DNA of 62,849 nucleotides, taken from positions 1-62,849 of the forward strand of contig MFIO01000001.1 of NCBI GenBank assembly GCA_001780775.1. The letters run 5' to 3'. The stretch comes from Candidatus Giovannonibacteria bacterium RIFCSPLOWO2_12_FULL_43_11c. GTDB lineage: Bacteria > Patescibacteriota > Minisyncoccia > JACPKW01 > UBA11713. Both the position numbers and the translations under genes were made by a program. Below are positions 15,573-44,318 of this stretch, one piece after another. The stretch's first letter is position 1; every line of letters starts with the position of its first letter. The notes under the pieces are model-generated. The model was given only the letters and a program-made list of their open reading frames with translations, ran no database searches and was not told the DNA's origin.

Positions 15573-16355
15573 ATGATAAAAAAATATCTGGGACAAAATT
15601 TTCTCAAAAATAAAAAAATCTTGGACGAAATTGTCCGCATTGGCGAAGTTTCAAAAGAGGATACCGTTTTGGAAGTCGGCCCCGGGCACGGAGAATTAAC
15701 TGAACTCTTGGCAAAGATGGCTAAGAAGGTTATTGCAGTTGAGAAAGATAAAGATTTAATTCCTCTTCTCCGAGAAAAATTTTCCTCAAACAAGAGAGTG
15801 AAAATAATTCATGAAGATATTCTTGAATTTGAAAATTTAAAATTACAAATTACAAATTACAAAATCGTCGCAAATATTCCCTACTACATCACTTCGCGCT
15901 TTTTACGCACCTATTTGTCCGATACTCGGTGTCGGCCATTGATGATCGTCCTTACGGTCCAATACGAGGTCGCAAAAAGAATTTCGGCGAAGCCTCCGGA
16001 TATGAACCTCCTTGCTTTGTCAGCACAGGCATATGGAAAAGTTGAATTCGTCCGAAAAGTCTCTCGGGGAAATTTCAGCCCGGCCCCGAAAGTTGATTCC
16101 GCGATAATAAAAATTTCAGAAATATCGGATAAATTTTTCAGAAAAAATAGGGTCAAGGAAAAGAAGTTTTTTGAAATTCTGCGCCAAGCTTTCCAGCAAA
16201 AGCGCAAAATGCTCCGTCATTCTTTATCCCCGAAGTTCGACTTCAAGGAACTCCGAAGTCGAACTTCGGAAAACTTCGGAACAAAACGGCCGGAGGAACT
16301 TTCGCTCGAAGATTGGGTAAAACTTTCGGAATCTATTGAGATCCGACCTCGATAG
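15573..16355 (+). CDS. rsmA: 16S rRNA (adenine1518/1519-N6)-dimethyltransferase
   Basis: Motifs LGQNFL, VLEVGPGHGELT and ANIPYYITS. It carries a 7-bp microsatellite and a palindromic element in frame. Confidence 0.9.
   Translation: MIKKYLGQNFLKNKKILDEIVRIGEVSKEDTVLEVGPGHGELTELLAKMAKKVIAVEKDKDLIPLLREKFSSNKRVKIIHEDILEFENLKLQITNYKIVANIPYYITSRFLRTYLSDTRCRPLMIVLTVQYEVAKRISAKPPDMNLLALSAQAYGKVEFVRKVSRGNFSPAPKVDSAIIKISEISDKFFRKNRVKEKKFFEILRQAFQQKRKMLRHSLSPKFDFKELRSRTSENFGTKRPEELSLEDWVKLSESIEIRPR
15840..15863 (+). repeat. (AAATTAC)x3 heptanucleotide microsatellite inside rsmA
   Basis: aaattac aaattac aaattac aaa. The 21 nt of the three units keep the frame and are read as ...LQITNYK... Confidence 0.8.
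16232..16267. repeat. GAAGTYCGACTTC palindromic element copy (in rsmA)
   Basis: GAAGTTCGACTTC-aaggaactcc-GAAGTCGAACTTC, read as PKFDFKELRSRTSE near the C-terminus. Confidence 0.9.
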
Positions 16356-16380: not shown

Positions 16381-16827
16381 CTACTTAATCGGAGATTGGC
16401 TGCAAAATCCGGTATTATTCCAAGCGCTGCCGTCAAAGGGATTTTTGAAGGCGAGAGTGCTCATAATCGTATTTATTATCACCCAAGCCCCGAAGGCGAT
16501 TACGAATCCGATTACCGCGGATACTAGAATACTTCTACCTTTAGTAATTTTCTCCTCGGAGCCTCCCGAAGTCAGCCAGAAAAATCCAGCGGCAAGAAGG
16601 GCTACGACCAAAAGCGGAGTCGCGATGCCCCAAAGCAGAAGATCTATTATATTATGCGCGAGAGTATATAGGTCGCAGACTTGGCAAGGGTGATCTGCTG
16701 GAGCTTTTGTACTTCCGCATGGCACGAGTTGCGTGGGGACGCCGACATGCGCAGAGACAAGGGCTGGTGCGAAGAAAAAGAAAAGCACCAGAAACACCCA
16801 TAAAATTGGCAATAAAGTCTTATCCAT
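16381..16827 (-). CDS. TrbC/VirB2-like 'T4SS pilin' family protein (paralogue 2)
   Basis: 148 aa with a signal peptide ending ...LVSAHV and a Cys cluster (PCG...HPCQVC). Two hydrophobic helices are separated by the loop TSGGSEEKITKGR. Confidence 0.65.
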   Translation of the reverse strand: MDKTLLPILWVFLVLFFFFAPALVSAHVGVPTQLVPCGSTKAPADHPCQVCDLYTLAHNIIDLLLWGIATPLLVVALLAAGFFWLTSGGSEEKITKGRSILVSAVIGFVIAFGAWVIINTIMSTLAFKNPFDGSAWNNTGFCSQSPIK

Positions 16828-16862
16828 AATTATATTGTAATCTATAAAAAAATATCAAGAAA

Positions 16863-18350
16863 TTAATTGCATCCGCAAGATGGACTAGCATTTGCATGAA
16901 CGTGGTCAATATCCACAACATTACAAGTGCCAATGAATCTTATCGAGCCAGCTTCGCAGAAAGCACCCGTAGCTCCGCAGCTGGTAGCTAAGTTTCTCAA
17001 TTTATCCCAATTTTGGGCGGATCTGCTAGGATCTCCTCGGATTCCCTGAAGTGAAAAGTCCGCCGCATTACCCGTGCCGTTACAACGCGTCCCACCATAG
17101 TGGCAGGAAATACTGGGTATACTCAGATCGCAGGTGTGCGATCCCTTATTTAACTGATTTGGTTGGGGTTGAATCACCGACAACCCCTGCGCGGCCGCAC
17201 CGGACATAACACAATTCACCAACGCCTGAGTTTGCGCAGATATATTGTCCGCCGAACACTTCAATCCGGTTGGCGTCGGGGTTGGGCTTGGAGTCACGCC
17301 AGGAGTTGGAGTTGTAGATGGTGTGGGCGTGGGCGTTGGAGAAGTTGTTCCGCCGCCCCCCTCATAACACCCGCAGATTCCGGTTTGCGGATCCCAAATC
17401 GCGGGAAGTCCCGGACACGCCCTATTTAAGCATCCTAGATTTACGCAACGGCACCCTCCGTTTCCGCAGTCGTTTACAAAACTTCTGCACCTACTACCGG
17501 TAATTCCGCAATTGCAGCAGGGCGCCGATCTTTGAGATCCGCGAATAAGATTTGGGGTACCTTCTCTATAGCAGGGATTGATACTATATGCGGCCTCCGC
17601 TGTTTTTATAAATATCTCGCGAATTTGAGACAAGCTTAATTTACTTGAGGCCTTTTGGTAAGCCGTTTTTTGGCGATAAGTAAAATAAATTTTTTCAAAA
17701 ATGGAGGAATTTTTACTTATTGATTTTACCGCAATAAGCTCCTCTTTCCATAACTTTGGCAAAATGACACGGTAAGACACGCGATATTTATCAATATCAT
17801 CTTTCGTTAAACCATCACCTTCAATTCCAATCATTAAGTATTCTAAATAATCAGCATACTTATCCTGAAGCGCTATTGTGTCGGCCATCGTATCTAATTT
17901 ATAAATTTCGTTCGATTTCAAGAATCCTATATCTATCATGCCTTGATTAATTTCTCTCAAAACGCTTTTATAATCTTCCGTATAACCGAAAGTGAAAATT
18001 TCTTGCTCGGTTACTGTCGCTGATTGCGGCGAGGTAGATGGATTTTGGAATATAGACGGCGCGCTTTGCGAAGATTCTGACGAATTTTGCGAAACAGAGT
18101 TGTTTTGATTGAAAGTTGAAGAAATAGCTTCGCCAAATGCTTCTATTGCTGGGGTTATGAAATCCTCCCTTGTTGAATAACTATTTCCAGAAGATTTATT
18201 CTCATTAAAAATTTTTGCCGCCACGGGAAATTCTTGCTTGGCAGATTTGGGCAGAGCAGGGAGAGAGATTAGGACGTAAACAACAAATCCGGCCACGGCA
18301 AGTGAAGTCAAAATCATGATCCAAATCAGTTTTCTCCGGTTATCCGGCAT
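16863..18350 (-). CDS. Anchored/secreted Cys-rich protein with a PT-linker and a C-terminal LAS (M15/VanY-like) metallopeptidase-like domain
   Basis: 495 aa with an N-terminal TM and a 14-Cys module (CYREG...CGCY). A linker TSPTPTPTPSTTPTPGVTPSPTPTPT precedes a C-terminal domain with SCHYGG...GNAADF...DIDHVH, which resembles the H/D/H zinc site. Confidence 0.6.
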   Translation of the reverse strand: MPDNRRKLIWIMILTSLAVAGFVVYVLISLPALPKSAKQEFPVAAKIFNENKSSGNSYSTREDFITPAIEAFGEAISSTFNQNNSVSQNSSESSQSAPSIFQNPSTSPQSATVTEQEIFTFGYTEDYKSVLREINQGMIDIGFLKSNEIYKLDTMADTIALQDKYADYLEYLMIGIEGDGLTKDDIDKYRVSYRVILPKLWKEELIAVKSISKNSSIFEKIYFTYRQKTAYQKASSKLSLSQIREIFIKTAEAAYSINPCYREGTPNLIRGSQRSAPCCNCGITGSRCRSFVNDCGNGGCRCVNLGCLNRACPGLPAIWDPQTGICGCYEGGGGTTSPTPTPTPSTTPTPGVTPSPTPTPTGLKCSADNISAQTQALVNCVMSGAAAQGLSVIQPQPNQLNKGSHTCDLSIPSISCHYGGTRCNGTGNAADFSLQGIRGDPSRSAQNWDKLRNLATSCGATGAFCEAGSIRFIGTCNVVDIDHVHANASPSCGCN

Positions 18351-18427
18351 ATATCCCTAATTATTACACAATTTGCCTATGGTTTATGCACAAATTCCTC
18401 ACAAATTACACACTATAATAAAGTAGG

Positions 18428-19192
18428 GTGACGAAACTATTTAGCCCAAGATTTATAGTTGCCATTTTTGCAGTGCCCATTATAGGCATCTTAGCTTTGT
18501 TTTGGTATTTTTCGCTACAAGGCGCACTTAAATATGAACGAGCTTCGGACTCTGTTCCCAGCCAGCAAGCTAATCTCACTGAAAATTTCTCAAAAGTCTT
18601 TATAGATAGATTTGGCGATAAAATCGTAAAAGGGGAGGATCTCTCCAAAATCTCTCCGGAAGAGATAAGCGCAACTTCCAAAGAAATAATCCCGTTTGAA
18701 AAAATTGTCGGCGAGATTCCTGTAGCGACTAAGGGCGATATTGCCATCATTGATGAAAATCGCCCTGAAGCCGTAAAAAATTATTTCAATTCGCTATACG
18801 GAGTATACGAAAAAACATTTCTTGTAATTCAGGTTGATGATGTCGAGATTTTATCTGAAGCCCTTTCCGAAAATAATTTTTCCAAACTTTCCCAAATCGA
18901 TAAAATCATTGCCGCGTTCGATAAAAGCTTTGAAGAAGTAAAAAATATTCCTGTGCCCAGGAGCCAGGAAAATTTTGCTGTCCAAGAGCTTAATTATCTT
19001 CTGCGTTCCAAGAAATTCGTCGAGTTTATCCGCAATGTAGACAAAGATCCGCTGGCGGCGCTTCTGGCTTTAAAAGAGCGGCTCTTGTTGATGGACGAGG
19101 TTCGGAGTTTTCATAAAAAAACGTTCGGAGATCTTCTCGCGGCGGGGATTAAATTTTCTCCGGAAGAAGGAGGGTATAAATTTTTTAAATGA
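18428..19192 (+). CDS. Hypothetical bitopic membrane protein, first gene of the T4SS-like operon
   Basis: 254 aa with a GTG start, one N-terminal TM and a soluble ~220-aa domain. Size and topology are compatible with a VirB8-like component, but no motif supports that. Confidence 0.55.
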   Translation: MTKLFSPRFIVAIFAVPIIGILALFWYFSLQGALKYERASDSVPSQQANLTENFSKVFIDRFGDKIVKGEDLSKISPEEISATSKEIIPFEKIVGEIPVATKGDIAIIDENRPEAVKNYFNSLYGVYEKTFLVIQVDDVEILSEALSENNFSKLSQIDKIIAAFDKSFEEVKNIPVPRSQENFAVQELNYLLRSKKFVEFIRNVDKDPLAALLALKERLLLMDEVRSFHKKTFGDLLAAGIKFSPEEGGYKFFK

Positions 19193-20958
19193 TTATGATC
19201 TGGATTTTCGCAATAATAACTTTTCTCATAACGCCTGGCTTGGCCTATGCCGATGTTCCTGTGTTTGACGGGACAACTCACACAATTCTTCGAGAAACCA
19301 AACAATTAATCGACGAGAGAACGAGTATCTTAAACCAAATGATTGCCGGGATTTTCAGGAAAGAAATCGGCATCAGTAAATCCGGAGCCGCAGAGGATCC
19401 TGCAATTCAAGAGATTATTGATGCCGTGAAAGCAGGCAAGAAAGCTCCTTGCGAGGCTCTGGGCAACTCGCTGGACTGCATGGCGTCCAAAATCACCGCG
19501 CAATCAATGCGAAATCTTGCCGCTCAATACCAAGACCGTCTGGAAGGCGTTAAGGCCGATGATCAAGGCGTAAAAACTCCAATCGCAGAGCCCGACGGCG
19601 ATCCCGCAAATACATTCACGGACGGCAAATTCTATGTGTCAGATTATGGGCAATACTATGCAAATGTGGCAACTAACGAGCGTGAGATCTTTTTGGAAAG
19701 CACTCTTGGGGACGACGATCCCCTTCAGATAAAAGAAAATCTTGCGCCTCACCTTAAAGATAGTATTCCTCAATTGGTGAGCAAATCTCTGAAAACAGAG
19801 GACTTTGAAGCACAAGTAAAAAGCACTATGCCTGCCGGTTCGGAGGGATTCATAGATGATTTTACGCAAGGCGGCTACGAGGCTTGGGGAGCTCTCATAT
19901 CCCCGCAAAATAGCCCCGCGTTTGTTTATCTTAGTTTCCTTGATGAAGAACAAACAAGAGAGCAAGCTGCTCTCGCAATCGCCCAAGAAGAATTAAATTC
20001 TCCGGGAATTATCCCAACCAAAGATTGCGATTATACTGACCAAGATGGGAAGAAGCTAATAGGAAACTGCAAAATTACAAATCCCGCAGGCCAGAATGTT
20101 ACAGCTTTTGGACAAATTCCCATTGTTGACCGCGAAAGAGCAGGTGTAGGGGACGAATTGAGCGATATCCAAGAAGTCGAACCCAAGCCAGGAGAAGGCG
20201 AAAATGTTTTTATCGGGCCTGATACGGTAGTGCTTGGAAACGAAGCTACAAGAAATAACGCATCTCTTTATGATATAGACCAACTTATTAGTCTGGCATC
20301 AAGGCTTATCGCATCCCTTTTTAGTAATACTATTAAGCCTAAGCCGACTCCGACCCCTACCCTGACCCCCACTCCTACGCCACCATCAAATTCCGTCACA
20401 ATAAATTCTCCTAAAAACGGGGAGTTCGTCAAAGGCAATAAAGTAATTTCTGTGGATTCCACAGTTCCGGGCACCGCCGCAGTCCAATTCAAAGTTGACG
20501 GAGTTAATTTCGGCGCTCCGGTAACCGGTAGCGGCCCGTATACAATTACTCTCAACACTGACACGCTTACGGAAGGCGCTCACATAATAACGGCAACTGC
20601 CCTTAATTCAAACAATGTAGCTATCAAAACAGGCGACCCGATCACAATAACTGTGGACCGGACAGCGCCTGCGATAAGCGGCTTGAATACATCCGATAAC
20701 AACTTAAACATACAAGGAAATACAAATATAACCGTAAACGCGGCGGATGCTGGAACCCAAAACTTAGTCGCGGTGGAGTTTTTCCTGAATGGAATTTCGA
20801 TCGGCGCCGGAACACTGCAAAACGGCCTCCAACGCTTGCAAAATTGGGATTCGACAGCGTTTGGAAACGGAACCTACGAGCTAAGCGCGGTCGCGACGGA
20901 TAGGGCGGGGAATAAGAACGAAATTAATACGCCAATTGCGATAGTAATAAATAACTGA
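19189..20958 (+). CDS. Secreted protein with a weakly VirB5/TrbJ-like N-terminus and two C-terminal bacterial Ig-like domains
   Basis: 589 aa. The signal peptide ends GLAYA and is followed by DVPVFDG..., matching the (I/V)PVxD start seen in TrbJ/VirB5. A PT-linker KPKPTPTPTLTPTPTPP follows. The Ig-like repeats include VQFKVDGVNFG...GAHIITATA and VEFFLNGISIG...YELSAVATDRAGN. Confidence 0.55.
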   Translation: MIMIWIFAIITFLITPGLAYADVPVFDGTTHTILRETKQLIDERTSILNQMIAGIFRKEIGISKSGAAEDPAIQEIIDAVKAGKKAPCEALGNSLDCMASKITAQSMRNLAAQYQDRLEGVKADDQGVKTPIAEPDGDPANTFTDGKFYVSDYGQYYANVATNEREIFLESTLGDDDPLQIKENLAPHLKDSIPQLVSKSLKTEDFEAQVKSTMPAGSEGFIDDFTQGGYEAWGALISPQNSPAFVYLSFLDEEQTREQAALAIAQEELNSPGIIPTKDCDYTDQDGKKLIGNCKITNPAGQNVTAFGQIPIVDRERAGVGDELSDIQEVEPKPGEGENVFIGPDTVVLGNEATRNNASLYDIDQLISLASRLIASLFSNTIKPKPTPTPTLTPTPTPPSNSVTINSPKNGEFVKGNKVISVDSTVPGTAAVQFKVDGVNFGAPVTGSGPYTITLNTDTLTEGAHIITATALNSNNVAIKTGDPITITVDRTAPAISGLNTSDNNLNIQGNTNITVNAADAGTQNLVAVEFFLNGISIGAGTLQNGLQRLQNWDSTAFGNGTYELSAVATDRAGNKNEINTPIAIVINN

Positions 20959-20959
20959 T

Positions 20960-22678
20960 ATGGAAGCAATATTTTCCAAAAAATTTCTGGCAGGATTGCT
21001 GATTATATCCATCCTAAGTTTGACCCTGCCATTCCATCAGGCTCATGCTGTGTCGTTAAAAGATTTGTTTACCGGGGGCGCGAAAGTTGTCAAAGCCGCG
21101 CCCAGCGTCTTAAAAGGCGCGGGCAAAGTGGCTCTTGGATTTGTTATAACAGCGGCGGCCTTAAAACTTCTCAGCGGAGTCATTATATTAATAGCCGGCA
21201 TGCTCTTCGATATGTCTGTCGGGTTCACTCTTGATAATGATAATTATTCATCCTCGAAAATCGATGCGATCGACGCCGGGTGGACATTCTCCAGGGACAT
21301 CGTAAATATATTTTTCATTTTTATTCTTCTTTTCATCGCAATCGCCACAATTTTGGGGATCGAGTCGTACGGAGCAAAATCGCTTTTGGCACGGTTGATC
21401 GTCGTCGCGCTTCTCGTAAATTTCAGTTTACTCGCAACGCGGGGGATAATTTTTGTTTCAAATTCCCTTGCCGTTCAAATATATAACTCACAAAGTAATA
21501 TCGGCGATAGCGACGGGGAAGCGGGCACCATCGGGACGCTCTTTAATTTTAAGTTTAAAAAGAATTTGGGAGCGAGGGTTTTAGGTATGTTTAAAGTACA
21601 AAGAATCTTCGCGAAAGTTCCAATACCAGATTCTGGTAGCACAATAGCCAATGAGATTTTTGGCTTTGGCACGATAGAGTTGGGCGGCATTGTCATCACA
21701 ATTCTCGGGGCTTTTCTGCTTTTTGCGGCTTCATTTTTATTCATAACCAGGATGGCTATCCTTTGGCTCTTGATGATCCTTGCCCCATTTGGGTTTGTAT
21801 TTTTGATACTCCCCGCGACCCGGTCTTACGCCCAGCAATGGTGGAAAAAATTAATCGACCAAGCCGTTTTTGCGCCGGCATTTTTGTTTCTTTTCTTTAT
21901 ATCGCTTAAGATACTCGAGAAATTACCCGATTTTACCAGCAAAGCAAACGATATAAAAGGCACGAACGAATTTTTGGCACTTATTTTATTGCAGGTGTCC
22001 ATAGCTTTTATCCTACTCTTCGCCTCACTTATGGTCGCAAAACAGCTTGGCATTTATGGCGCGGATGGGGCGATGAGTATGGCCAAAAAGAGTGGGAAAG
22101 CCTTTGGGAGATATGCTGGCAAAACGCTCCCATCTCGAGGTGTAAGCCGGACAGCCAAGGCAATAGAAAACACGAGAGTAGGAAATGCTATGAAACAGAT
22201 CCCTGGAGTAGGTAGGATGCTCGGGGCAGCTTCACAGTTAAATGCAAAAGAAATAAAGGAATACGAGAAAAAATACCAGGGATATGACCGTAAGATATTA
22301 GAAAATATGGCAAATAATCCTAGGGCGAATTTGATGAATAGCAGTCAAAGAGCCGCTGTAAATAACTTGCTTGGCAAAGCTAGAGGCGCAGACGAAAAAG
22401 CAAAGAGGGATAAAGAGGAAAGAGCACAGGAAGATATGATATTAAAAAGTCCATTATTCAGCGCGGAGGAAAAGCTAGCAACAATGGTGAGGCGCGAGCG
22501 CCGCAGATCAAGCGAAGCGGAATCGCGGGCGACTGAAGCAGAATCTAAGGCAGAAGAGGCGGAGGAAAAGGCCGAAGAAGCCGGAACTCGAGCGGCGCGT
22601 GCTGAAACAAGCGCGGGAGAAGCTCGAGCCGAAGCGAGTGCAACAAAACCAACGCAAAATGAAACTAACGCCACATAA
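20960..22678 (+). CDS. TrbL/VirB6-like polytopic membrane protein with a Glu/Ala-rich tail
   Basis: 572 aa with at least 6 TM helices and a long hydrophilic C-terminus (SSEAESRATEAESKAEEAEEKAEEAG...). It lies just upstream of the PrgI-like and VirB4 genes. Confidence 0.55.
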   Translation: MEAIFSKKFLAGLLIISILSLTLPFHQAHAVSLKDLFTGGAKVVKAAPSVLKGAGKVALGFVITAAALKLLSGVIILIAGMLFDMSVGFTLDNDNYSSSKIDAIDAGWTFSRDIVNIFFIFILLFIAIATILGIESYGAKSLLARLIVVALLVNFSLLATRGIIFVSNSLAVQIYNSQSNIGDSDGEAGTIGTLFNFKFKKNLGARVLGMFKVQRIFAKVPIPDSGSTIANEIFGFGTIELGGIVITILGAFLLFAASFLFITRMAILWLLMILAPFGFVFLILPATRSYAQQWWKKLIDQAVFAPAFLFLFFISLKILEKLPDFTSKANDIKGTNEFLALILLQVSIAFILLFASLMVAKQLGIYGADGAMSMAKKSGKAFGRYAGKTLPSRGVSRTAKAIENTRVGNAMKQIPGVGRMLGAASQLNAKEIKEYEKKYQGYDRKILENMANNPRANLMNSSQRAAVNNLLGKARGADEKAKRDKEERAQEDMILKSPLFSAEEKLATMVRRERRRSSEAESRATEAESKAEEAEEKAEEAGTRAARAETSAGEARAEASATKPTQNETNAT

Positions 22679-22681
22679 ACT

Positions 22682-23524
22682 ATGCCGATAATAAACACAT
22701 ATAGGAATGAAGATTTATTGAAAACTTATCAGAAGCTTCCTTTTGATCTGCAAGAGATTATTCTGTCAAAAAATAAGGTTGCTTTTCTTCAATCGCTGTG
22801 TGAAAAATATAATTTATCAGGAATAAAAGCAAGAGATCTTAAAGATGCGGCAACATTTGTGCTGCTTGGGTGGACACATCCCAAAGATTTTATTCCGGAT
22901 TTGTCCGAAAAACTTGGGGTGGATCGGGAGACGGCGAAGAAAATCGCAGAGGATGTTAACCGAGAAATTTTCCAGAAAGTTAGAGTGAGCTTGAGAAAAC
23001 TTTATGGGATAACGGACGAGGCCCCTCCTTCGCTAGAAGCTACGGAGGGCGCAGTAAAAATTACGGAAAACGTTCCGGCGCCCAAACCGCCCGCCCCGAA
23101 GCCCCCGCCCTTGCCCACCCATCCTTCGCCGAAGGCTACGGAGGGCACAGCAAAACCTCCTCCTAAAATTGTCATTAAGGAAAATATTGAGATCCCGAAG
23201 GAAGCGCCGAAAGAAGAATTAAAGCCGCTCGAGATACGGCCTATCAAAGGCGGGCCGTTGGGGGAAAGTGAGATGCCGAACGAGAAAACCCCGACGCCCT
23301 CAAGGGTCGGGGCTCCGACCGCAAGCGTCGGAGTTTCTCCGCGGCCGCAGGTGGAAATGGATATGGGGTTGAAGGTAATGCCTCATTCGCAAAAAGAGGT
23401 TGGAATAAAGAAAGAGGTGCCCAAACCGCCTTCAGGAATGGCATTTATGAATGAGAAAAAGCCAGAGCAAAAACCGCCGGAACCGCCTAAACCAAGTTAC
23501 GATCAATATAGAGAACGGATATGA
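22682..23524 (+). CDS. Hypothetical protein, folded N-terminal domain plus a Pro/Lys/Glu-rich region
   Basis: 280 aa. The low-complexity part reads PAPKPPAPKPPPLPTHP with internal ATEG-x-x-K repeats. It contains two short GC hairpins (23289-23333). Confidence 0.6.
   Translation: MPIINTYRNEDLLKTYQKLPFDLQEIILSKNKVAFLQSLCEKYNLSGIKARDLKDAATFVLLGWTHPKDFIPDLSEKLGVDRETAKKIAEDVNREIFQKVRVSLRKLYGITDEAPPSLEATEGAVKITENVPAPKPPAPKPPPLPTHPSPKATEGTAKPPPKIVIKENIEIPKEAPKEELKPLEIRPIKGGPLGESEMPNEKTPTPSRVGAPTASVGVSPRPQVEMDMGLKVMPHSQKEVGIKKEVPKPPSGMAFMNEKKPEQKPPEPPKPSYDQYRERI
23289..23333. repeat. Two adjacent short GC hairpins, CCCCGAC-N10-GTCGGGG and CTCCGAC-N7-GTCGGAG
   Basis: Read directly and translated as TPTPSRVGAPTASVGV. 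The CTCCGAC/GTCGGAG arms are identical to the inner arms of the tsaE copy at 44073-44111. Confidence 0.5.
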
Positions 23525-23976
23525 GGCAATTCCAAGTCCCACAATTTATAGAAGTAGAAGATAAGATTTTTGGGCCGCTGACCTTAAAACAGTTCTTATA
23601 TATAGTAGGTGGCGCCGGTATGACGTTTCTCCTTTACGCTTTATTGAGGTCATTTCTGCCTCTTTTCATAATCCTTACTTTAGCGGCGCCTCTCATCACG
23701 TTTTTTTTCGCTTTGGCATTTTACAAAATTAACGGCCAGCCGTTCATGAAAATTTTGGAAAATGCTCTCACTCATTATACAAACTCCCGCCTATATATAT
23801 GGAAAAAGATTAATCGGCCAATCACGATAACCGAGGAGAAAAGCGAATTTTTGCACAGAAATAATTTCTCCCTGCTTAAAAAGAGAGCCCCATCTCCCAA
23901 TCAAGGGGCAAAATTGCAGGATTTGGCGTGGTCGATAGAAGTGCGTGGCGGGAAAAATATAAATCCCCAGACTTAG
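23521..23976 (+). CDS. PrgI-family (VirB3-like) T4SS membrane protein
   Basis: 151 aa. The N-terminus MRQFQVPQFIEVEDKIFGPLTLKQFLYIVGG is followed by two TM helices, which is the typical PrgI pattern. It overlaps the upstream gene by 4 nt. Confidence 0.7.
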   Translation: MRQFQVPQFIEVEDKIFGPLTLKQFLYIVGGAGMTFLLYALLRSFLPLFIILTLAAPLITFFFALAFYKINGQPFMKILENALTHYTNSRLYIWKKINRPITITEEKSEFLHRNNFSLLKKRAPSPNQGAKLQDLAWSIEVRGGKNINPQT

Positions 23977-23979
23977 GTT

Positions 23980-24639
23980 ATGGCGACTAAGAAATTAAAA
24001 TCGGCAAGCGCGCAGGAATTTGTCCCGATTCAGGAAATACGGGAAGGCGTTGCCATTCTCAAAAATGGCGCGCTTCGAATGGTGCTGATGGCTTCTTCCC
24101 TTAACTTCGCTCTCAAATCCGTTGAGGAACAAGAAGCAACGATATTCCAATACCAGAATTTCTTGAATTCGCTCGACTTCACCGTCCAGTTTTTTATCCA
24201 ATCAAGAAAATTAAACATTAATCCTTATCTGGATATTCTAAAAGAGGCCGAAAAAGGGCAAATTAACGAGCTCCTGAAGATACAGACGCGCGAATATATT
24301 GAGTTCATAAAGAATTTCGTCGAGACAACGAATATAGTAAGCAAAGCATTTTACGTCGTAGTGCCTTTTGAGCCGCCTATTTTCGAGACTCCGAAAGGAG
24401 CCGCTGACTCCATTTTGGAAATTTTCTCAAGCAAAAAAACGGATATCAAAAAGATTCCTGATAGCAAATTCGAGGAATATAAAATACAACTTTTCCAGCG
24501 CGTGGATACGGTCGCGCAAGGGCTGATGTCGGCCGGGGTCCGGGTCGCCCCGCTCAATACCGAGGAACTAATAGAACTTTACTTCGGCCTATTTAACCCT
24601 GGGGAGTTGGATAAAGGCGGAGCGCCGGTAGTTACTTAA
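23980..24639 (+). CDS. Stand-alone protein resembling the N-terminal domain of Gram-positive VirB4-type ATPases
   Basis: 219 aa. EFVPIQEIREGVAILKNGALRMVLMASSLNFALKSVEEQEATIFQYQNFLNSLDFTVQFFIQSRKLNI follows the pattern seen at the N-terminus of Tn916 ORF16/TrsE-like proteins, as I recall it. There is no P-loop. Confidence 0.5.
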   Translation: MATKKLKSASAQEFVPIQEIREGVAILKNGALRMVLMASSLNFALKSVEEQEATIFQYQNFLNSLDFTVQFFIQSRKLNINPYLDILKEAEKGQINELLKIQTREYIEFIKNFVETTNIVSKAFYVVVPFEPPIFETPKGAADSILEIFSSKKTDIKKIPDSKFEEYKIQLFQRVDTVAQGLMSAGVRVAPLNTEELIELYFGLFNPGELDKGGAPVVT

Positions 24640-24649
24640 ATTAATACTT

Positions 24650-26473
24650 ATGTTTGGATTCGGAAAAAATAAAAAAAGTGAGAATATTACGGTGGCGGAA
24701 ATGCCTTCGTTGCTTCCTGAAAACATCAAGGGGACGGGCGGATTTGATGTTGAAGACGCAGTGGCGCCCGCGGCCCTTCTGATAGAGTCTAACTACGTGA
24801 AGCTGGGAGAGAAAGTTGCGCGGACTCTTTTCGTTTTTACATATCCTAGATTTCTCGCGATAAATTGGTTCGCGCCCGTGATAAATTTAGATAAAGTTTT
24901 TGATATTTCAATTTTTATACACCCGCAGGATACAAATACGGTCCTGCGCCAACTCGAGAAAAAAGTCGCGGAAGTCCAATCGCAAATCCATGATCGCGAG
25001 AAAAAAGGTTTGGTGCGAGACCCGATGCTTGATACGGCGCATCATGACCTCGAGGAGTTGAGAGATAATCTTCAGCAGGCCCAGGAGAGATTATTTTCTT
25101 TTGGTTTATATATTACGATTTACGCGGAAAATCTGGCAGAGTTAAATAAAAACGAAAGTGAAATACGATCCATATTAGAGTCTAAGCTCGTCTACGCAAA
25201 ACCCGCGCTTTTCCAGCAAGGGGAAGGGCTGCAGACAACCTTTCCGCTCGCAACTGATCAGCTTGAGATAAATACTAAATTGAATTCCTCCCCGATTTCT
25301 TCACTTTTTCCATTTACCTCTTTCGACCTGACTTCAAATAAAGGGATACTTTACGGAATAAACCGGCATAACTCAAGCTTGGTTCTTTTTGACCGCTTTA
25401 GTTTGGAAAACTATAACTCCGTGGTATTTGCTAAATCCGGGTCCGGAAAATCCTACGCCACTAAACTGGAAATCCTGCGCTCCATGATGCTCGGCACGGA
25501 GGTAATCGTTATCGACCCGGAACGCGAATACGAATATCTAGCGGAGACGGTGGATGGAAGATATTTCAATATATCTCTCTCTTCGCATCACCATATAAAC
25601 CCATTTGACCTGCCACCGCCTAGAGAAGACGAATCGCCAGCGGATTTACTGCGATCAAATATCATCAACCTTATAGGTCTTTTTCGCATAATGTTCGGAG
25701 GACTCACTCCAGAAGAAGATTCCATTTTGGACCGCGCAATTACGGAAACCTACGCCTCTCGCGACATCACGCCAGATGCGGATTTTTCGAAAGCGACCAT
25801 GCCGATTCTTTCGGATCTTGAGCTTGTCCTCGCCAACATGGAAGGAGGCGAATCGCTTGCGCAAAAATTAAGAAAATATACCCAAGGAACCTGGGCGGGA
25901 TTTATTAACCAGCCCTCAAATGTCGATATAAATAAGAAACTCGTCGTCTTTTCCGTCCGCGATATGGAAGACGAGCTCCGTCCGATCGCGATTTACCTGA
26001 TTGTGCACCACGTTTGGAACGCAGTCCGGACAGAGATAAAAAAGAGGCTTTTAATTGTGGACGAGGCCTGGTGGATTATGAAAACCGAAGACGGCGCTTC
26101 GTTTTTGTTCGGAATCGCGAAGCGGGCAAGAAAATATTATTTGGGAATTTCAACAATTACGCAAGACGTCGGCGATTTCTTAAATTCCGAATATGGAAAA
26201 GCTATCATTACAAATTCCTCCATCCAGCTTCTATTAAAACAGGCGCCTGCGGCGATTGACATCTTGAAACAAACTTTTAATCTTACGGAAGAAGAAAAAT
26301 TTCTCCTGCTCGAGTCGGATGTCGGAGAGGGGATTTTCTTCGCTGGGATGAAGCATGTCGCGATAAAAATACTCGCTTCGTACACGGAAGATCAAATCAT
26401 CACTTCCGACCCGTCCCAGCTTTTGGCGATCAAAAAGGCGAAGGAAGATTATAAAGAATCGAATTTGAAATAA
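24650..26473 (+). CDS. virB4: VirB4/TrsE-like T4SS ATPase
   Basis: 607 aa. The N-domain reads LGEKVARTLFVFTYPRFLAINWFAPVINLDKVFDISIFIHP, with Walker A FAKSGSGKSYATK and Walker B RLLIVDEAWW. Confidence 0.85.
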   Translation: MFGFGKNKKSENITVAEMPSLLPENIKGTGGFDVEDAVAPAALLIESNYVKLGEKVARTLFVFTYPRFLAINWFAPVINLDKVFDISIFIHPQDTNTVLRQLEKKVAEVQSQIHDREKKGLVRDPMLDTAHHDLEELRDNLQQAQERLFSFGLYITIYAENLAELNKNESEIRSILESKLVYAKPALFQQGEGLQTTFPLATDQLEINTKLNSSPISSLFPFTSFDLTSNKGILYGINRHNSSLVLFDRFSLENYNSVVFAKSGSGKSYATKLEILRSMMLGTEVIVIDPEREYEYLAETVDGRYFNISLSSHHHINPFDLPPPREDESPADLLRSNIINLIGLFRIMFGGLTPEEDSILDRAITETYASRDITPDADFSKATMPILSDLELVLANMEGGESLAQKLRKYTQGTWAGFINQPSNVDINKKLVVFSVRDMEDELRPIAIYLIVHHVWNAVRTEIKKRLLIVDEAWWIMKTEDGASFLFGIAKRARKYYLGISTITQDVGDFLNSEYGKAIITNSSIQLLLKQAPAAIDILKQTFNLTEEEKFLLLESDVGEGIFFAGMKHVAIKILASYTEDQIITSDPSQLLAIKKAKEDYKESNLK

Positions 26474-26474
26474 A

Positions 26475-27212
26475 ATGGTGGGCGGCGCTGCAAGCACAAT
26501 TGAAAACGAGCGCTTCATGGCCTTGCACGGGGCCAGAGTTTTCGGCAGGCGAAATTCTCCTCTCGCGAAAGCCAGGAAATCAGCGCCTGAAGCCGTAGAA
26601 AGCGTTATCCGGAAGTTAAAAGAAGAAATCGAAAGAGGCCACGCGAGGGTTACTTTTATAATAGTGATGTCTTTTGGCCTATTGAAAGACTTCGGCTTGG
26701 ATGGGATGAGAGTTATCACCAGGATGGCAGTGGAATCATCAACGCGGGGCACGGCTGGCGTAGTAGGCTGGGGCATGTACGGACTTGGCTGGGCAGTTTC
26801 AAAGATTCCTACTCCTGTTACCGTAGGAATTGGCTATGGCCTTCAAGCAGTTTCATATGGAGTTGAATATGTTGGCGAGTCCATGGCCATATCGAGCGGC
26901 AAAGCGGTGGATCTCACGTTTATGGCTATCTCTTTTATGGTTTCGGGAGCTATTTTTCTATTGATGTGGAACAAGGGCTGGATGATGAAGCCTAAGTTAA
27001 AATATACTTGGTGGGGATTGGGATTCTTTGTAGATAATCTACCGAAGGTAAGCGCCCTTCCATTAACAACTATTTCCATCGGATACACATGGATGCATGT
27101 AAAAAGGAGGTCGCGGGCGGCGGAGAAAAAACTTGCGAATATCGAAAAATTAACGCAAAATGAGATTGAGGAATTGGATCAAGATATTTCTATTTTGGAT
27201 AGAAAAAGCTAA
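26475..27212 (+). CDS. Hypothetical polytopic membrane protein with a C-terminal coiled tail
   Basis: 245 aa starting 1 nt after the virB4 stop. It has several Gly-rich TM helices. Confidence 0.6.
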   Translation: MVGGAASTIENERFMALHGARVFGRRNSPLAKARKSAPEAVESVIRKLKEEIERGHARVTFIIVMSFGLLKDFGLDGMRVITRMAVESSTRGTAGVVGWGMYGLGWAVSKIPTPVTVGIGYGLQAVSYGVEYVGESMAISSGKAVDLTFMAISFMVSGAIFLLMWNKGWMMKPKLKYTWWGLGFFVDNLPKVSALPLTTISIGYTWMHVKRRSRAAEKKLANIEKLTQNEIEELDQDISILDRKS

Positions 27213-27215
27213 ATT

Positions 27216-27929
27216 ATGAAAATATTTCTTTTAATAATTTTTCTGGGAATAGTACCTCTCGCCTTAGCGCAGACGGACAATTTTAAACCGGTTGAGGTTA
27301 ATCTGCTTCTCGAGTCGGGAAGTTATGTGCCGAGTTGGTATAGAGGGGCTTCTTTGCCGACACTGGAGTCAAAAACCAAGGTTTCGGCATTTATATTCCT
27401 AAATGGCAAAAAACTTCTGCCCGCGAATTTTACATACAACTGGAGAATAGACGGTAATTTGGATAGGGAAGTTTCCGGCAAGGGGAAAGAAAGCATTTCT
27501 TATGCTTTTCCGAAAAGCAAGGGGTCCTCGAGCGTAATTCAAGTTGAAGTTTTGGACACAAAAAATAAACTCCGTGGCAAAGCCGAAATTGTGATTGATC
27601 CGAAAGTTCCTGAAGTACTAATTTACGAAAAAAATTCGTCGGGTCCGATTGTTTCCCGTGCCATTCGAAATAAAACGATGAGTCCGGGAAGTAAATTTGA
27701 GATAAAGGCTGTGCCATTTTTTATGAATTTCGTTGCGAAGTCTAGTCTGCAATTTATCTGGTTCCAGGACAGTCAGCCGCAAAACGCGGTGGACGGCGAA
27801 CCGGATGCTTATGTGGTCGAAGCTAAGCCTGGGACGGGAGGGCAGAACGCAACGTTTAAAGTTATCGTCACTAATACAAAAAGTCTTTTAGAGAAAATTG
27901 AAAACTCTATTTATGTCGAAGTTAGGTAA
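27216..27929 (+). CDS. Hypothetical secreted beta-rich protein
   Basis: 237 aa with the signal peptide MKIFLLIIFLGIVPLALAQ. Confidence 0.6.
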   Translation: MKIFLLIIFLGIVPLALAQTDNFKPVEVNLLLESGSYVPSWYRGASLPTLESKTKVSAFIFLNGKKLLPANFTYNWRIDGNLDREVSGKGKESISYAFPKSKGSSSVIQVEVLDTKNKLRGKAEIVIDPKVPEVLIYEKNSSGPIVSRAIRNKTMSPGSKFEIKAVPFFMNFVAKSSLQFIWFQDSQPQNAVDGEPDAYVVEAKPGTGGQNATFKVIVTNTKSLLEKIENSIYVEVR

Positions 27930-28491
27930 AGCAATATTTATATCCGCGTCTTCTCTGTTTTTTTCTATTGCAAGCGCAGTGATAACCCCTACGCCGGCGA
28001 CATCAAACACAGATTTTACTGGCTACGCAAAATTTTTATATCCTTTTGCGCTATCCATCGGGGCAGTTCTTGCAGTCATAATGCTCATAATCGCGGGGCT
28101 GCAGATGATGACGGCTTCCGAGGGGCAGCGCACTGCCGCGAAAGAAAGGATACAAAACGCAATTATAGGGCTTTTGCTTCTGGTTGGTATTTTTATAATC
28201 TTAAATATGATAAATCCTGATTTGCTAAATTTAAAAATTAATACAGACGGGCTGAAAGTAGACAAAACAACGAATGCTGAGCAAAATAGCTCGCCTAAGG
28301 GTGACTGTGTTGTTGCTGGAAAAACATTTGAGTTGACTCAAGCACAATGCGACGCACAAAAAGGTGGTTTTAACGGATGTCCTCTTGGTGTTGCGGGTAA
28401 TACTCAGGGTGACTGTGTTGTTGCTGGAAAAACATTTGAGTTGACCAAAACACAGTGCAACGCACAAAAAGGTACTTTTAGCTGTAAATGA
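27913..28491 (+). CDS. TrbC/VirB2-like 'T4SS pilin' family protein (paralogue 3) with a duplicated Cys-containing C-terminal module
   Basis: Signal-like N-terminus, then two hydrophobic helices around the loop TASEGQRTAAKER. The C-terminal module GDCVVAGKTFELT(Q/K)(A/T)QC(D/N)AQKG occurs twice. The ATG at 27913 was preferred over the TTG at 27898. Confidence 0.65.
   Translation: MSKLGKAIFISASSLFFSIASAVITPTPATSNTDFTGYAKFLYPFALSIGAVLAVIMLIIAGLQMMTASEGQRTAAKERIQNAIIGLLLLVGIFIILNMINPDLLNLKINTDGLKVDKTTNAEQNSSPKGDCVVAGKTFELTQAQCDAQKGGFNGCPLGVAGNTQGDCVVAGKTFELTKTQCNAQKGTFSCK
28298..28488 (+). repeat. 108-bp tandem duplication (1.8 copies) at the 3' end of the pilin gene
   Basis: 28298-28337 is identical to 28406-28445 (agggtgactgtgttgttgctggaaaaacatttgagttgac). 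The rest is diverged. Confidence 0.85.
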
Positions 28492-28513
28492 TCGTGTAAA
28501 ATATTTTAACGCT

Positions 28514-29725
28514 ATGCAAGAATTTATCACAACCAAAAGAATAATAATCGCACTCGCTATTTTATTCGTGTTGTTTTTCGCGTCGGGGGCGATTTGGTAT
28601 TATTTTATCCGGGGTAATAGTTCGATAAATAATAATTCTAATCAGCCGGAACCGACTCCGATCGAAAATCCGTTCCCGGAAGGCGGCGGGAGAGAGCCCG
28701 TGAATGGCGGAAGTAGTTCGTCGAGTGGCGGATCGGATCTTGGGTCAGTCCCCCAAAACCTGAACGCATCGCAGGGCGACTCTACGCAGATCGTTCCCGA
28801 CGCGGTCGCCGGAGCTGTTTTCTATAAAAATAGGGTCCGCTACGTCGAAAAGTCTTCCGGAAATATTTTTGAGATTGATTTAGACGGGAAAAACAAAACC
28901 AATCTCTCTAATAATAAAATCTCTGGGGTTTTTGACGCTGTATGGTCCAAACAAGGGACGCGGGCAATAATCAAATACGCTTCGGGGGATAAAATTTTTA
29001 CCGTCTCCGCGGCGATTACAGGATCTACGACAAAGACAACGATTTTGCCTTCCGGGGTCAAAGACGCTGCTTTCTCACCAAAAGGAGACCGGATCGCCTA
29101 TGTACTCGTTTCGGGAGACAGTGCTTCCGTTATAACCGCGACTCCGGAAAATAAAAACCAGGCGACGCGCCTTAAAATGAAATATTCATCCTGGAAAATT
29201 TTATGGGCGGAGGATAATGGCATTTATCTTCTGTCCTCTCCTTCGGCGTATCTGGATGGATTTCTATATAAAATAACCTTATCTTCCGGGGCTTTCTCTA
29301 AAATACTCGGCCCTTATCCAGGCCTCCTCGCATCCGTTAATACCCCCAGCCTAATTTTCTCCGAGACAAATCAAAAGGAAAAAACTATCAATACATTTCT
29401 TGCTAATTCCTCCGGAGGGAATATAGGTCCTCTTCCGATAAAAGCTATGCCGGAAAAATGCGCCTGGTCGAAAAAGGTCAAGGATGTCGTATTTTGCGCG
29501 GCTCCTCTGATCATGCCGGGGGCTATTTATCCCGACGATTGGTATATGGGGAAAGTATCTTTTGGAGATGCTGTCGTAAAAATAAACATAGCCTCGCGGG
29601 CGATAATCTCTTTCTTGCTGCCGAAGGCGATCGACACAACTAAACTTTTCCTCTCCGACGACGAAACAAACTTGTTTTTTATAAATAAGACAGACGAATC
29701 GCTTTGGAGATTGAGGCTGCCCTGA
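28514..29725 (+). CDS. N-terminally anchored beta-propeller (TolB/PD40-like) protein
   Basis: 403 aa with an N-terminal TM and a Gly/Ser/Asn linker. It has repeated beta-strand units, e.g. AAFSPKGDRIAYVLVSGD. The stop codon is formed at the junction with a palindromic element. Confidence 0.6.
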   Translation: MQEFITTKRIIIALAILFVLFFASGAIWYYFIRGNSSINNNSNQPEPTPIENPFPEGGGREPVNGGSSSSSGGSDLGSVPQNLNASQGDSTQIVPDAVAGAVFYKNRVRYVEKSSGNIFEIDLDGKNKTNLSNNKISGVFDAVWSKQGTRAIIKYASGDKIFTVSAAITGSTTKTTILPSGVKDAAFSPKGDRIAYVLVSGDSASVITATPENKNQATRLKMKYSSWKILWAEDNGIYLLSSPSAYLDGFLYKITLSSGAFSKILGPYPGLLASVNTPSLIFSETNQKEKTINTFLANSSGGNIGPLPIKAMPEKCAWSKKVKDVVFCAAPLIMPGAIYPDDWYMGKVSFGDAVVKINIASRAIISFLLPKAIDTTKLFLSDDETNLFFINKTDESLWRLRLP

Positions 29726-29759
29726 AGTCCGACTTCAGAGTGCCCCGAAGTCGGACTTC
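29724..29759. repeat. GAAGTYCGACTTC palindromic element copy, intergenic (possible bidirectional terminator)
   Basis: ctGAAGTCCGACTTC-agagtgcccc-GAAGTCGGACTTCag fills the whole 37-nt gap between convergent genes and overlaps the TGA at 29723-29725. Confidence 0.9.
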
Positions 29760-31439: not shown

Positions 31440-31574
31440 TTATACAACGAGGCGCGCTCTTTTTTTTCTCCGGCGGCGGCGTAGCACGTTCTGCCCCGAC
31501 GTCGTGCTCCGCCTTTTTAAGAAGCCGTGGCTTTTCTTTCTTTTTCGTTTTTTAGGCTGGTAGGTTTGTGACAT
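31440..31574 (-). CDS. rpmH: 50S ribosomal protein L34
   Basis: Not in the ORF track (44 aa). Manual translation gives [44 protein letters not shown]. Confidence 0.9.
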
Positions 31575-43847: not shown

Positions 43848-44318
43848 ATGAAAGAGGCGCTTCGGGCTATAACTAAGAACGCTAAACAAACGGAAAAATT
43901 TGCAGAGGCGTTTGCGAGAGAAGTTTTAAGACTAAAAACTAAGCGCGCGATTTTAATTGGGCTAGAGGGGGAACTTGGCGCGGGGAAGACGACTTTCGCG
44001 AAGGGATTTGCGCGAGGGCTCGGGATCAAAGAGGAGATGAAAAGCCCGACTTTTATTTTGATGCGTGTTTTTCGAAGTTCGACTCCGACGTTTCGTCGGA
44101 GTCGAACTTCGTGGGAGCGTTTTTTTCATATCGACGCCTATCGCGATCAGATTGATTTTAGAGAATATCTAAAGAGCAAAAAAAATATTTTACTTGTTGA
44201 ATGGTCCGATAAAGCAAAAAAATTTCTTCCTAAAAATTATTTCAGGTTTGTTTTAAGAAGTCCGACTTCAAAGACACCCCGAAGTCGGACTTCGAGAGAG
44301 ATAAAGTTTTATGTCTAA
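43848..44318 (+). CDS. tsaE: tRNA t6A37 biosynthesis ATPase TsaE
   Basis: P-loop LEGELGAGKTTFAKG, then SPTF...HIDAYR. The gene is interrupted in frame by two palindromic elements. Confidence 0.8.
   Translation: MKEALRAITKNAKQTEKFAEAFAREVLRLKTKRAILIGLEGELGAGKTTFAKGFARGLGIKEEMKSPTFILMRVFRSSTPTFRRSRTSWERFFHIDAYRDQIDFREYLKSKKNILLVEWSDKAKKFLPKNYFRFVLRSPTSKTPRSRTSREIKFYV
44073..44111. repeat. Palindromic element copy (tsaE copy 1), perfect 18-bp arms
   Basis: CGAAGTTCGACTCCGACG-ttt-CGTCGGAGTCGAACTTCG is 39 nt and is read as RSSTPTFRRSRTS. Its half-sites differ from the consensus by a compensatory pair (CTTC->CTCC with GAAG->GGAG). Confidence 0.9.
44257..44293. repeat. GAAGTYCGACTTC palindromic element copy (tsaE copy 2)
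   Basis: GAAGTCCGACTTC-aaagacacccc-GAAGTCGGACTTC, read as RSPTSKTPRSRTSR near the C-terminus. Confidence 0.9.

Follow-up and report, generated by a model that had tools for sequence, protein, structure and literature searches.

The locus and its genomic setting

The DNA analyzed here is a 62,849-nt stretch (the window) of contig MFIO01000001.1 from the Candidatus Giovannonibacteria metagenome-assembled genome (MAG) GCA_001780775.1, and our subject is a locus of 13 open reading frames (ORFs) in this window that encodes parts of a type IV secretion system (T4SS). Two of the ORFs lie on the minus strand (16381-16827 and 16863-18350) and eleven on the plus strand (18428 to 29725); products that have no family name are referred to below by the first coordinate of their ORF. 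Components were called from hidden Markov model (HMM) searches of the window proteins against Pfam and NCBIfam and from searches of family profiles against the PDB. The locus is very probably the Paceibacteria version of the T4SS of the Patescibacteria clade, derived from Gram-positive conjugation machines of the MPF-FATA class, fixed in the chromosome beside the replication origin (oriC), and inherited vertically.

All 13 ORFs were found at the coordinates given by an earlier sequence-only reading of this DNA, which a model had made from the letters and their translations, and the junctions of the plus-strand run likewise have the extremes that it had reported, namely a 17-nt overlap (27913 vs 27929) and a 22-nt gap. 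Every ORF of the locus is intact and the whole is closely packed. On HMM annotation the flanks consist of housekeeping genes, with UvrD and KsgA upstream and Jag, YidC, YidD, RnpA, RpmH (31440-31574), DnaA (31702-33066), and DnaN downstream; the distance from the end of the operon to the start of dnaA is 1977 nt, in agreement with the proximity to the rpmH-dnaA region noted earlier. The guanine-cytosine (GC) content of the locus is about that of its surroundings.

The VirB4 motor and the membrane platform

The sequence-only reading had named a VirB4 ATPase, a PrgI (VirB3-like) protein, and a VirB6/TrbL-like protein, and the HMM searches bear out all three, the last of them marginally. VirB4 scored 372 bits against the NCBIfam model conju_CD1110 (cut-off 325) with model positions 184-733 covered, and matched Pfam P-loop_TraG at 84.6 bits and also AAA_10; both of its Walker motifs, A (GSGKS) and B (LLIVDEAW), are intact. 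PrgI was recognized by its Pfam model, at the score listed in Table 1. The VirB6-like protein scored 26.5 bits against Pfam TrbL, for which the cut-off is 25.9; TrbL was also matched by 9 of its 45 orthologues, and no rival family appeared.

The VirB4 protein is 100% identical to OGF66742.1 of GenBank, annotated as "conjugal transfer protein TraC," and to three other Ca. Giovannonibacteria entries. The same complete identity to GenBank proteins of several Ca. Giovannonibacteria MAGs was found for the 495-aa cysteine-rich protein (16863) and the 589-aa immunoglobulin-like (Ig) protein (19189), and all of these counterparts other than OGF66742.1 are annotated as "hypothetical." These identities place the organism in the Paceibacteria (Parcubacteria) of the Patescibacteria. 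The closest matches of VirB4 are all from Patescibacteria (69-100% identity, the grouping being judged by similarity), and the nearest plasmid-encoded VirB4s, from Streptomyces, Embleya, Priestia, Bacillus, and Clostridium, are 29-36% identical and annotated as members of the CD1110 family. Membership of this family together with plasmid relatives in Firmicutes and Actinobacteria fits an MPF-FATA origin of the protein. Weak HMM matches of VirB4 to CedB and CedD were also obtained, far below the cut-offs of those families (37 vs 700 bits).

The 23980 protein, which the sequence-only reading had left without a family, aligns in NCBIfam to VirB4_plasma (positions 98-233, E=5e-8), to conju_CD1110 (positions 2-152, E=7e-5), and weakly to TrsD (E=0.0018). 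Because it aligns to the N-terminal part of the model and the VirB4 ORF covers positions 184-733 of CD1110, VirB4 is split in two, with a TrsD-like N-domain and an ATPase body encoded separately in a pGO1-like arrangement.

Conservation across related loci

One genome per species was scanned, which gave at least 512 loci encoding a relative; the best 80 of these were kept (VirB4 69-88% identical), and gene order was read from the approximately 50 of the 80 that had enough flanking DNA. The order common to these roughly 50 species, which belong to several orders, is uvrD-ksgA-[variable]-18428-19189-VirB6-22682-PrgI-TrsD-VirB4-(26475)-27216-pilin-propeller-jag-yidC-rnpA-rpmH-dnaA-dnaN, in which 18428 is often duplicated in tandem and the last two T4SS genes are sometimes exchanged in order. 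Across the 80 loci, PrgI and the TrsD-like protein were present in 78 each, 22682 in 74, 27216 in 69, VirB6 in 66, the second pilin and 28514 in 62 each, 18428 in 58, and, after HMM iteration, 26475 in 37.

Median identities to the window proteins in the same loci were 71% for VirB4, 53% for TrsD, 50% for DnaA, 49% for UvrD, 42% for PrgI, 41% for YidC, and 40% for KsgA. Conservation in these genomes is thus higher for VirB4 than for DnaA, an unusual finding for a protein that descends from conjugation machinery; the contrast is somewhat inflated, since the loci were selected on VirB4 similarity.

Absence of conjugation and mobility genes at the locus

Among the annotated ORFs of the 62.8-kb window, HMM searches identified no VirD4, relaxase, VirB11, or VirB7/9/10, as the sequence-only reading had stated. 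Its further statement that the window holds no integrase or flanking repeats was correct for the borders of the locus, where no integrase, no border repeats, and no locus-specific repeats of any such kind adjoin, and incorrect for the window as a whole, in which a tyrosine recombinase with Phage_integrase and SAM_1 domains is encoded at 4757-5692 on the minus strand. This recombinase is XerC/D-like and lies 11 kb from the locus, with PNPase, ComM, an M23 peptidase, UvrD, and KsgA in between.

Repeats of 25 nt near both ends of the locus were considered as borders of an integrative and conjugative element (ICE) and rejected, as they are part of a dispersed palindromic element present in six copies (5273-5308, 14101-14137, 16232-16267, 29724-29759, 44257-44293, and 49543-49578). 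The element consists of pairs of GAAGTCSGACTTC spaced 23-24 nt apart and forms hairpins of about 36-40 nt; its unit has 12 matches in the window vs 0.06 expected. Given the six dispersed copies, the hairpin at the end of the operon (29724-29759) does not mark the border of a mobile element. ORFs contain at least two of the copies (in uvrD and ksgA), and those at 44257 and 49543 fall within ORFs 43848-44318 and 48793-50823, which suggests an element resembling repetitive extragenic palindromes or miniature inverted-repeat transposable elements (REP/MITE-like) that tolerates in-frame insertion.

The locus is a vertically inherited chromosomal machine and not an ICE, given its fixed site in about 50 species, the lack of adjoining genes for DNA transfer or mobility, the lack of border-specific repeats, and its unremarkable GC content.

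Table 1. Features of the T4SS locus in the window, in order of position (TM, transmembrane; P/T, proline/threonine-rich).
Feature	Position	Strand	Basis or remark
VirB2/TrbC-like pilin 1	16381..16827	-	Pfam T4SS_pilin 35.1 bits, TrbC 27.6 bits
Sigma-70-like promoter match directly upstream of pilin 1	16829..16858	-	TTGATA-18-TATAAT, 11/12 consensus match
Bitopic Cys-rich protein, 495 aa, 22 Cys	16863..18350	-	One N-terminal TM helix; modules A and B
Module B, Cys/His-rich domain of ~130 aa	16866..17267	-	Pilin-fused homologues in other Patescibacteria
Divergent intergenic region	18351..18427		TATAAT and three CACAA(A)TT repeats, read from the sequence
First operon gene, predicted bitopic protein	18428..19192	+	Topology (N-terminal TM helix, extracytoplasmic helical domain); no family match
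Secreted protein, 589 aa	19189..20958	+	Helical N-module (residues ~22-386), P/T linker, two Ig domains
VirB6/TrbL-like polytopic membrane protein, charged C-terminal tail	20960..22678	+	TrbL HMM; ~6-7 TM segments
Cytoplasmic protein	22682..23524	+	Conserved N-domain of ~105 aa, Pro-rich disordered linker, conserved C-terminal DPYRE-type motif
PrgI / VirB3-like membrane protein	23521..23976	+	Pfam PrgI 58.6 bits
TrsD-like protein (separately encoded VirB4 N-terminal domain)	23980..24639	+	NCBIfam
VirB4 ATPase, CD1110 / MPF-FATA type	24650..26473	+	NCBIfam and Pfam HMMs, Walker motifs
Small polytopic membrane protein, Gly-rich insertion in window copy	26475..27212	+	No family match
Secreted tandem Ig-like repeat protein	27216..27929	+	Profile match to Hoc
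VirB2-like pilin 2 (conserved operon pilin)	27913..28491 (start 27898 or 27913)	+	Pfam T4SS_pilin 34.5 bits
Membrane-anchored protein, weakly TolB-like beta-propeller	28514..29725	+	NCBIfam and PDB profile
Hairpin of ~36 nt at operon end, between convergent genes	29724..29759		Sequence; one of six dispersed palindromic copies

Pilins and the cysteine-rich protein

Both VirB2-like pilins proposed in the sequence-only reading were recognized by the Pfam T4SS_pilin model. Pilin 1 has a signal peptide, two TM helices, and a short C-terminus. Pilin 2 carries a C-terminal extension with two Cys-hairpin repeats (GDCVVAGKTFELTxxQCxAQKG), encoded by a direct DNA repeat (28295-28372 and 28403-28480) whose copies are 90% identical, and its orthologues have extensions that vary from almost nothing to about 200 aa and are often Cys-rich, placed behind a conserved TINPxL motif.

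The 16863 protein is made up of module A (residues 1-328), a P/T linker, and module B (about residues 362-495), and in a search of 1.84 billion representatives each module also occurred without the other, module A in some 120 stand-alone proteins and module B in some 25 proteins. In other Patescibacteria, the C-terminal module (about residues 330-495 in this comparison) is found behind a P/T linker and C-terminal to a T4SS_pilin domain in 10 of the 10 homologues examined (the homologues are among proteins P0253-P0390), and the pilin part of one such fusion, P0258, is 44% identical to pilin 1 of the window over its full length. The pilin and the Cys/His-rich domain, one polypeptide in those species, are thus the products of adjacent genes in the window, and the fusion ties the minus-strand pair functionally to the pilus; this link is a modest new point of the present analysis. 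Together with the variable Cys-rich tails of the pilin 2 family, the fusions suggest that the pili display accessory domains on the surface.

The alignment of module B has an invariant H56, D70, and H122, near-invariant H44, E105, H124, and Cys residues, and ten conserved cysteines; its signature reads SCHYGG...NAxDF...CE...DHVHAN and the C-terminus CGC[NQ]. The sequence-only reading had called the 16863 protein LAS-peptidase-like, and sequence searches do not support it as a LAS or M15-type zinc peptidase: Pfam, NCBIfam, and the PDB gave no match for the whole protein or for any of three segments of it, and a module B family profile built from 22 sequences found no PDB match and no Pfam family. 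What is left of that call is a resemblance at the level of motifs, consisting of a His/Asp pair 13 residues apart (SCHYGGTxCNGxGNAxDF) and a conserved HxH formed by H122 and H124. The His-Asp spacing of LAS enzymes is typically 3-6 residues.

The minus-strand gene pair itself is not conserved across the related loci. In several other lineages, the variable slot between ksgA and the T4SS operon holds a minus-strand PG_binding_1+TIG protein (L031:1035-2564, L041:1749-3221, L068:2825-4031, and L079:1117-2289). Three of the four loci also encode a small secreted partner that contains Cys; the partner ORF in L079 does not resemble one.

The 19189 protein

The first product upstream of VirB6 had been described as a weakly VirB5/TrbJ-like Ig-domain protein, and of this description the Ig domains stand (Pfam Big_7, 49 bits, at the C-terminus) and the VirB5/TrbJ identity does not. 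The Pfam and NCBIfam models of VirB5/TrbJ matched neither the 19189 protein nor any of 42 orthologues at E<=1, and the family profile found nothing in the PDB beyond XaxA at E=0.8. AlphaFold2 models reached a pLDDT (predicted local distance difference test) of 70 for the N-module of the window protein and 82 for P0124, a typical family member, and Foldseek searches of the two models against the PDB gave best E-values of 0.53 and 0.012 at TM-scores of about 0.1 (<=0.18), with no T4SS protein among the best 50 matches of each. The HMM, profile, and fold searches thus give no support for a VirB5/TrbJ minor pilin, and the residue of VirB5-like evidence is an N-terminal DVPVFD motif and the position of the gene just before VirB6.

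The N-module (19189-20346, plus strand), with which the homologue search of the family was made, has more than 118 homologues (P0124-P0241), all annotated as "hypothetical" and without a Pfam family. Orthologues keep this module and swap the C-terminus, which may be CHB_HEX_C, F5/8C, CARDB, fn3, PKD, or a helical module, and a conserved N-module with interchangeable C-terminal binding domains fits a candidate surface adhesin or host-recognition protein. The idea that 18428 and 19189, both of them helical and exported, are homologous families was rejected at an hhalign probability of 0.4%.

Other proteins of the operon

The sequence-only reading counted six genes without a recognizable family, and this holds for 18428, 22682, and 26475; the other three are recognizable, as TrsD-like (23980), Ig-like (27216), and weakly TolB-like (28514). 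Pfam, NCBIfam, and profile searches gave no VirB8 or other family match for 18428, although TSP3_bac Ca-binding repeats occur in 16 of its 38 orthologues. The topology of both 18428 and 27216 would suit a VirB8-like protein, for which HMM and profile-PDB searches gave no match with either. The 27216 protein is Ig-like: its family profile finds Hoc, an Ig-like protein of phage (3shs, E=1.4e-5). The family has three repeats, and the first of them (~100 aa behind the signal peptide) is missing from the window copy but present in relatives, Giovannonibacteria locus L001 among them.

The 22682 protein has neither a TM helix nor a signal peptide. In its alignment D274 and Y276 are invariant, the P, R, and E of the DPYRE-type motif are near-invariant, and the family found no match in the PDB; from these features it looks like an adaptor that may dock through its short C-terminal peptide. 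The 26475 family is poorly conserved (mean column identity 12% in the alignment) and the window protein matched no family in Pfam or NCBIfam. For 28514, NCBIfam propeller_TolB was matched at E=5e-4, and of the 12 TolB entries that the family profile found in the PDB the best had E=0.0027, a similarity to TolB propellers that appears weak but consistent.

Putative regulatory sites and neighboring genes

Promoter-like sites in the region were not above shuffle expectation in number, and only individual sites are noted here. In the divergent intergenic region a TATAAT lies 8 nt upstream of the GTG start of 18428, and with so short a distance the 18428 mRNA may be leaderless or nearly so. Two further genes of the window encode functions that the literature discusses alongside the T4SS: PNPase (RNA feeding; 7557-9734, plus strand), 9 kb upstream of the locus, and PilB/T2SSE, an ATPase of type IV pili (host attachment; 41443-43113, minus strand), 12 kb downstream.

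Relation to known systems

The system to which the locus belongs was described between 2023 and 2025, and the window locus is an ordinary Paceibacteria member of it. Transposon sequencing of Southlakia epibionticum showed that its T4SS (SEML1_0006-0019) and pilin array are essential for epibiotic growth, and that system has a Gram-positive-like composition, with pilins and without a recognized relaxase or coupling protein (Wang 2023, Cell, PMC10633639). A survey of 3,035 Patescibacteria genomes recovered a monophyletic VirB4 clade nested in MPF-FATA, with TrsD, PrgI/VirB3, VirB6, and VirB2-like pilins encoded near virB4, relaxases rare, VirB8 mostly undetectable, and the Paceibacteria cluster sited near dnaA, dnaN, rnpA, rpmH, and ksgA (Quiñonero-Coronel 2025, Microb Genom, PMC12102498). 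Table S1 of the same survey lists the sibling genomes RIFCSPLOWO2_02_FULL_43_37 and _43_11b as VirB4-positive (PMC12102498). In a FEMS review of 2025 these systems figure as a recognized T4SS subgroup. Recent papers on Minisyncoccota cultures contained nothing on T4SS function. From the published accounts and the presence of sibling genomes in the survey, the locus is no new kind of system, and the novelty implied by the sequence-only reading does not hold, the same conclusion having been published for the phylum (PMC10633639; PMC12102498; PMC12857230). The substance of that reading, a reduced Gram-positive-style VirB4 machine in the chromosome next to the origin, without parts for DNA transfer and repurposed for a pilus or for host interaction in an epibiont, agrees with the CD1110/MPF-FATA VirB4, the lack of a relaxase or coupling protein in the window, and the fixed site.

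The window locus is like the Patescibacteria-clade T4SS in its VirB4 with adjoining TrsD, PrgI/VirB3, and VirB6, in its VirB2-like pilins in a monoderm, in a cluster without relaxase or coupling protein, and in its site by dnaA, dnaN, rnpA, rpmH, and ksgA. It differs in having two dispersed pilins rather than the six-gene array of S. epibionticum and in carrying module B, elsewhere fused to a pilin, on a neighboring protein; nothing essential differs. The accessory families 18428, 19189, 22682, 26475, 27216, and 28514 are not described individually in the Patescibacteria T4SS accounts cited here.

Compared with the conjugative T4SSs of the MPF-FATA class (TrsC-TrsD-TrsE of pGO1/pIP501, PrgH-PrgI-PrgJ of pCF10, CD1110 of CTn2), the locus shares a CD1110-family VirB4, a PrgI-type VirB3, TrsD as a separate N-domain (as in pGO1), and the lack of an outer-membrane core, whereas it has no relaxase, oriT, or coupling protein among the annotated ORFs of the window, no recognizable VirB8-like protein or VirB1 hydrolase, and a fixed chromosomal site. 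It also has VirB2-type pilins, unlike the MPF-FATA class, which to our knowledge is without them. With the Gram-negative VirB/D4 systems (MPF-T) it has in common VirB2-like pilins with a signal peptide and two TM helices and homologues of VirB3, VirB4, and VirB6; in contrast to them it lacks the VirB7/9/10 core, VirB11, and VirD4, neither HMM nor fold searches identify the product encoded before VirB6 as VirB5, and the pilins of its family bear long variable C-terminal extensions. ComB of Helicobacter pylori and Ced of the Sulfolobales are VirB4 systems that work in the import direction, taking up DNA. The window locus resembles these in being VirB4-based, in lacking a relaxase, and in its weak CedB/CedD matches, and it differs in that ComB or Ced accessory proteins are absent from it and import would be hypothetical here.

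Proposed mechanism and alternatives

Given the components above, we propose that VirB4/TrsD, PrgI, and VirB6 would form a membrane platform that extracts pilins from the membrane and polymerizes them into a VirB2-type pilus. The variable, often Cys-rich C-terminal extensions of the pilins would decorate the exterior of this pilus, the Cys/His domain of the 16863 protein being one such extension in other species, and the exported accessory proteins (the adhesin-like 19189, the Ig-repeat protein, the TolB-like propeller, and the bitopic helical protein) may mediate contact with the host envelope and passage across it. By extension from work on other classes, the machine would be needed for epibiotic or parasitic growth and would serve as a parasite-host conduit, not for conjugation, and its candidate cargo would be either host macromolecules (RNA, nucleotides) on the way in or effectors on the way out.

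Several points weigh against assigning the locus to a pilus-building Patescibacteria-clade T4SS that no longer conjugates. Assembly of a pilus and passage through it are processes that we infer for the Paceibacteria T4SS, VirB6 appears only just above its Pfam threshold, neither a VirB8-like nor a VirB1-like component was identified in the HMM and profile searches, and the choice of loci by VirB4 similarity somewhat exaggerates the contrast with DnaA. Moreover, VirD4 homologues are present in most of the surveyed Patescibacteria genomes, usually distant from virB4 (PMC12102498), such that a coupling protein may be encoded elsewhere in the genome.

As to what the Patescibacteria-clade T4SS does for its bearer, the import of host material is about as likely as the export of effectors (or attachment), and conjugation is unlikely. 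One tentative possibility is an uptake machine, in which host nucleic acid (RNA or DNA) or other cytoplasmic material would be taken in through the pilus and translocon to feed a cell unable to make nucleotides. Import has precedents among VirB4 systems in ComB and in Ced, to whose CedB and CedD the window VirB4 shows its weak matches, and the window includes a PNPase gene. In a cultivated parasite of the Microgenomatia, uptake of host RNA was reported together with tubular structures that are tentatively T4SS pili, and in the same work VirB4 and PNPase each form a phylum-wide monophyletic clade (bioRxiv 10.64898/2026.06.21.733656). In S. epibionticum, comEC-based competence is dispensable and the T4SS is essential (PMC10633639; PMC11665869). 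Against uptake, the sequence carries no sign of direction or cargo, no nucleic-acid-binding component was recognized in the operon, and the preprint itself calls the link between tubular structures and T4SS tentative.

Equally tentative on present evidence is an effector translocator or attachment organelle that exports protein into or onto the host, or anchors the cell to it, and transports no nucleic acid. T4SSs without a coupling protein do exist, such as Ptl and the Brucella VirB system (PMC12857230, PMC12102498), the authors of the Saccharibacteria work favor protein export or an alternative role (PMC10633639), and exported adhesin-like parts abound in the locus, among them domains of the Ig, TSP3, and propeller types, C-terminal binding domains that differ between orthologues, and pilin extensions that vary. 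This proposal is weakened in that no effector candidates or secretion signals were identified and that it assigns no role to the cytoplasmic 22682 protein.

A more specific version of import, which we consider improbable, would make the pilus a feeding tube: the Cys/His domain, as a metallo-domain (H...D, HxH) carried on pilins or here on a neighboring membrane protein, would cut or grip the host cell wall, the exchangeable C-termini of the 19189 family would set host specificity, and the VirB4/TrsD motor would import host RNA or nucleotides. An ordinary or decaying ICE, with its relaxase, coupling protein, and integrase either lost or encoded away from the locus, is very improbable, for although the VirB4 family is otherwise conjugative, a tyrosine recombinase is encoded in the window (4757-5692, minus strand), and VirD4 homologues occur elsewhere in many Patescibacteria genomes (PMC12102498), the chromosomal position and gene order are identical in about 50 species of several orders, VirB4 exceeds DnaA in conservation, every ORF is intact and the packing is tight, the recombinase is of the XerC/D type with housekeeping genes intervening, the palindromic repeats are dispersed rather than border-specific, and the GC content is unremarkable.

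Significance

The window locus is a textbook Paceibacteria copy of the Patescibacteria-clade T4SS, from the 2016 MAGs of the Rifle aquifer. What the present analysis adds is a map, gene by gene, of the operon conserved in Paceibacteria, two unannotated families that have neither a fold match nor an assigned family (the N-module of 19189 and the adaptor-like 22682), a "Rosetta-stone" fusion of the Cys/His domain with a pilin, and the conservation of VirB4 above DnaA. The pilin/Cys-His fusion, the fold-orphan 19189 family with its swapped binding domains, and the adaptor-like 22682 protein are leads for functional work. The system is near-universal in a phylum that holds a large share of bacterial diversity and is required for growth by the one species tested, and if the pilus did act as a feeding tube, this would be the first T4SS dedicated to nutrient acquisition.

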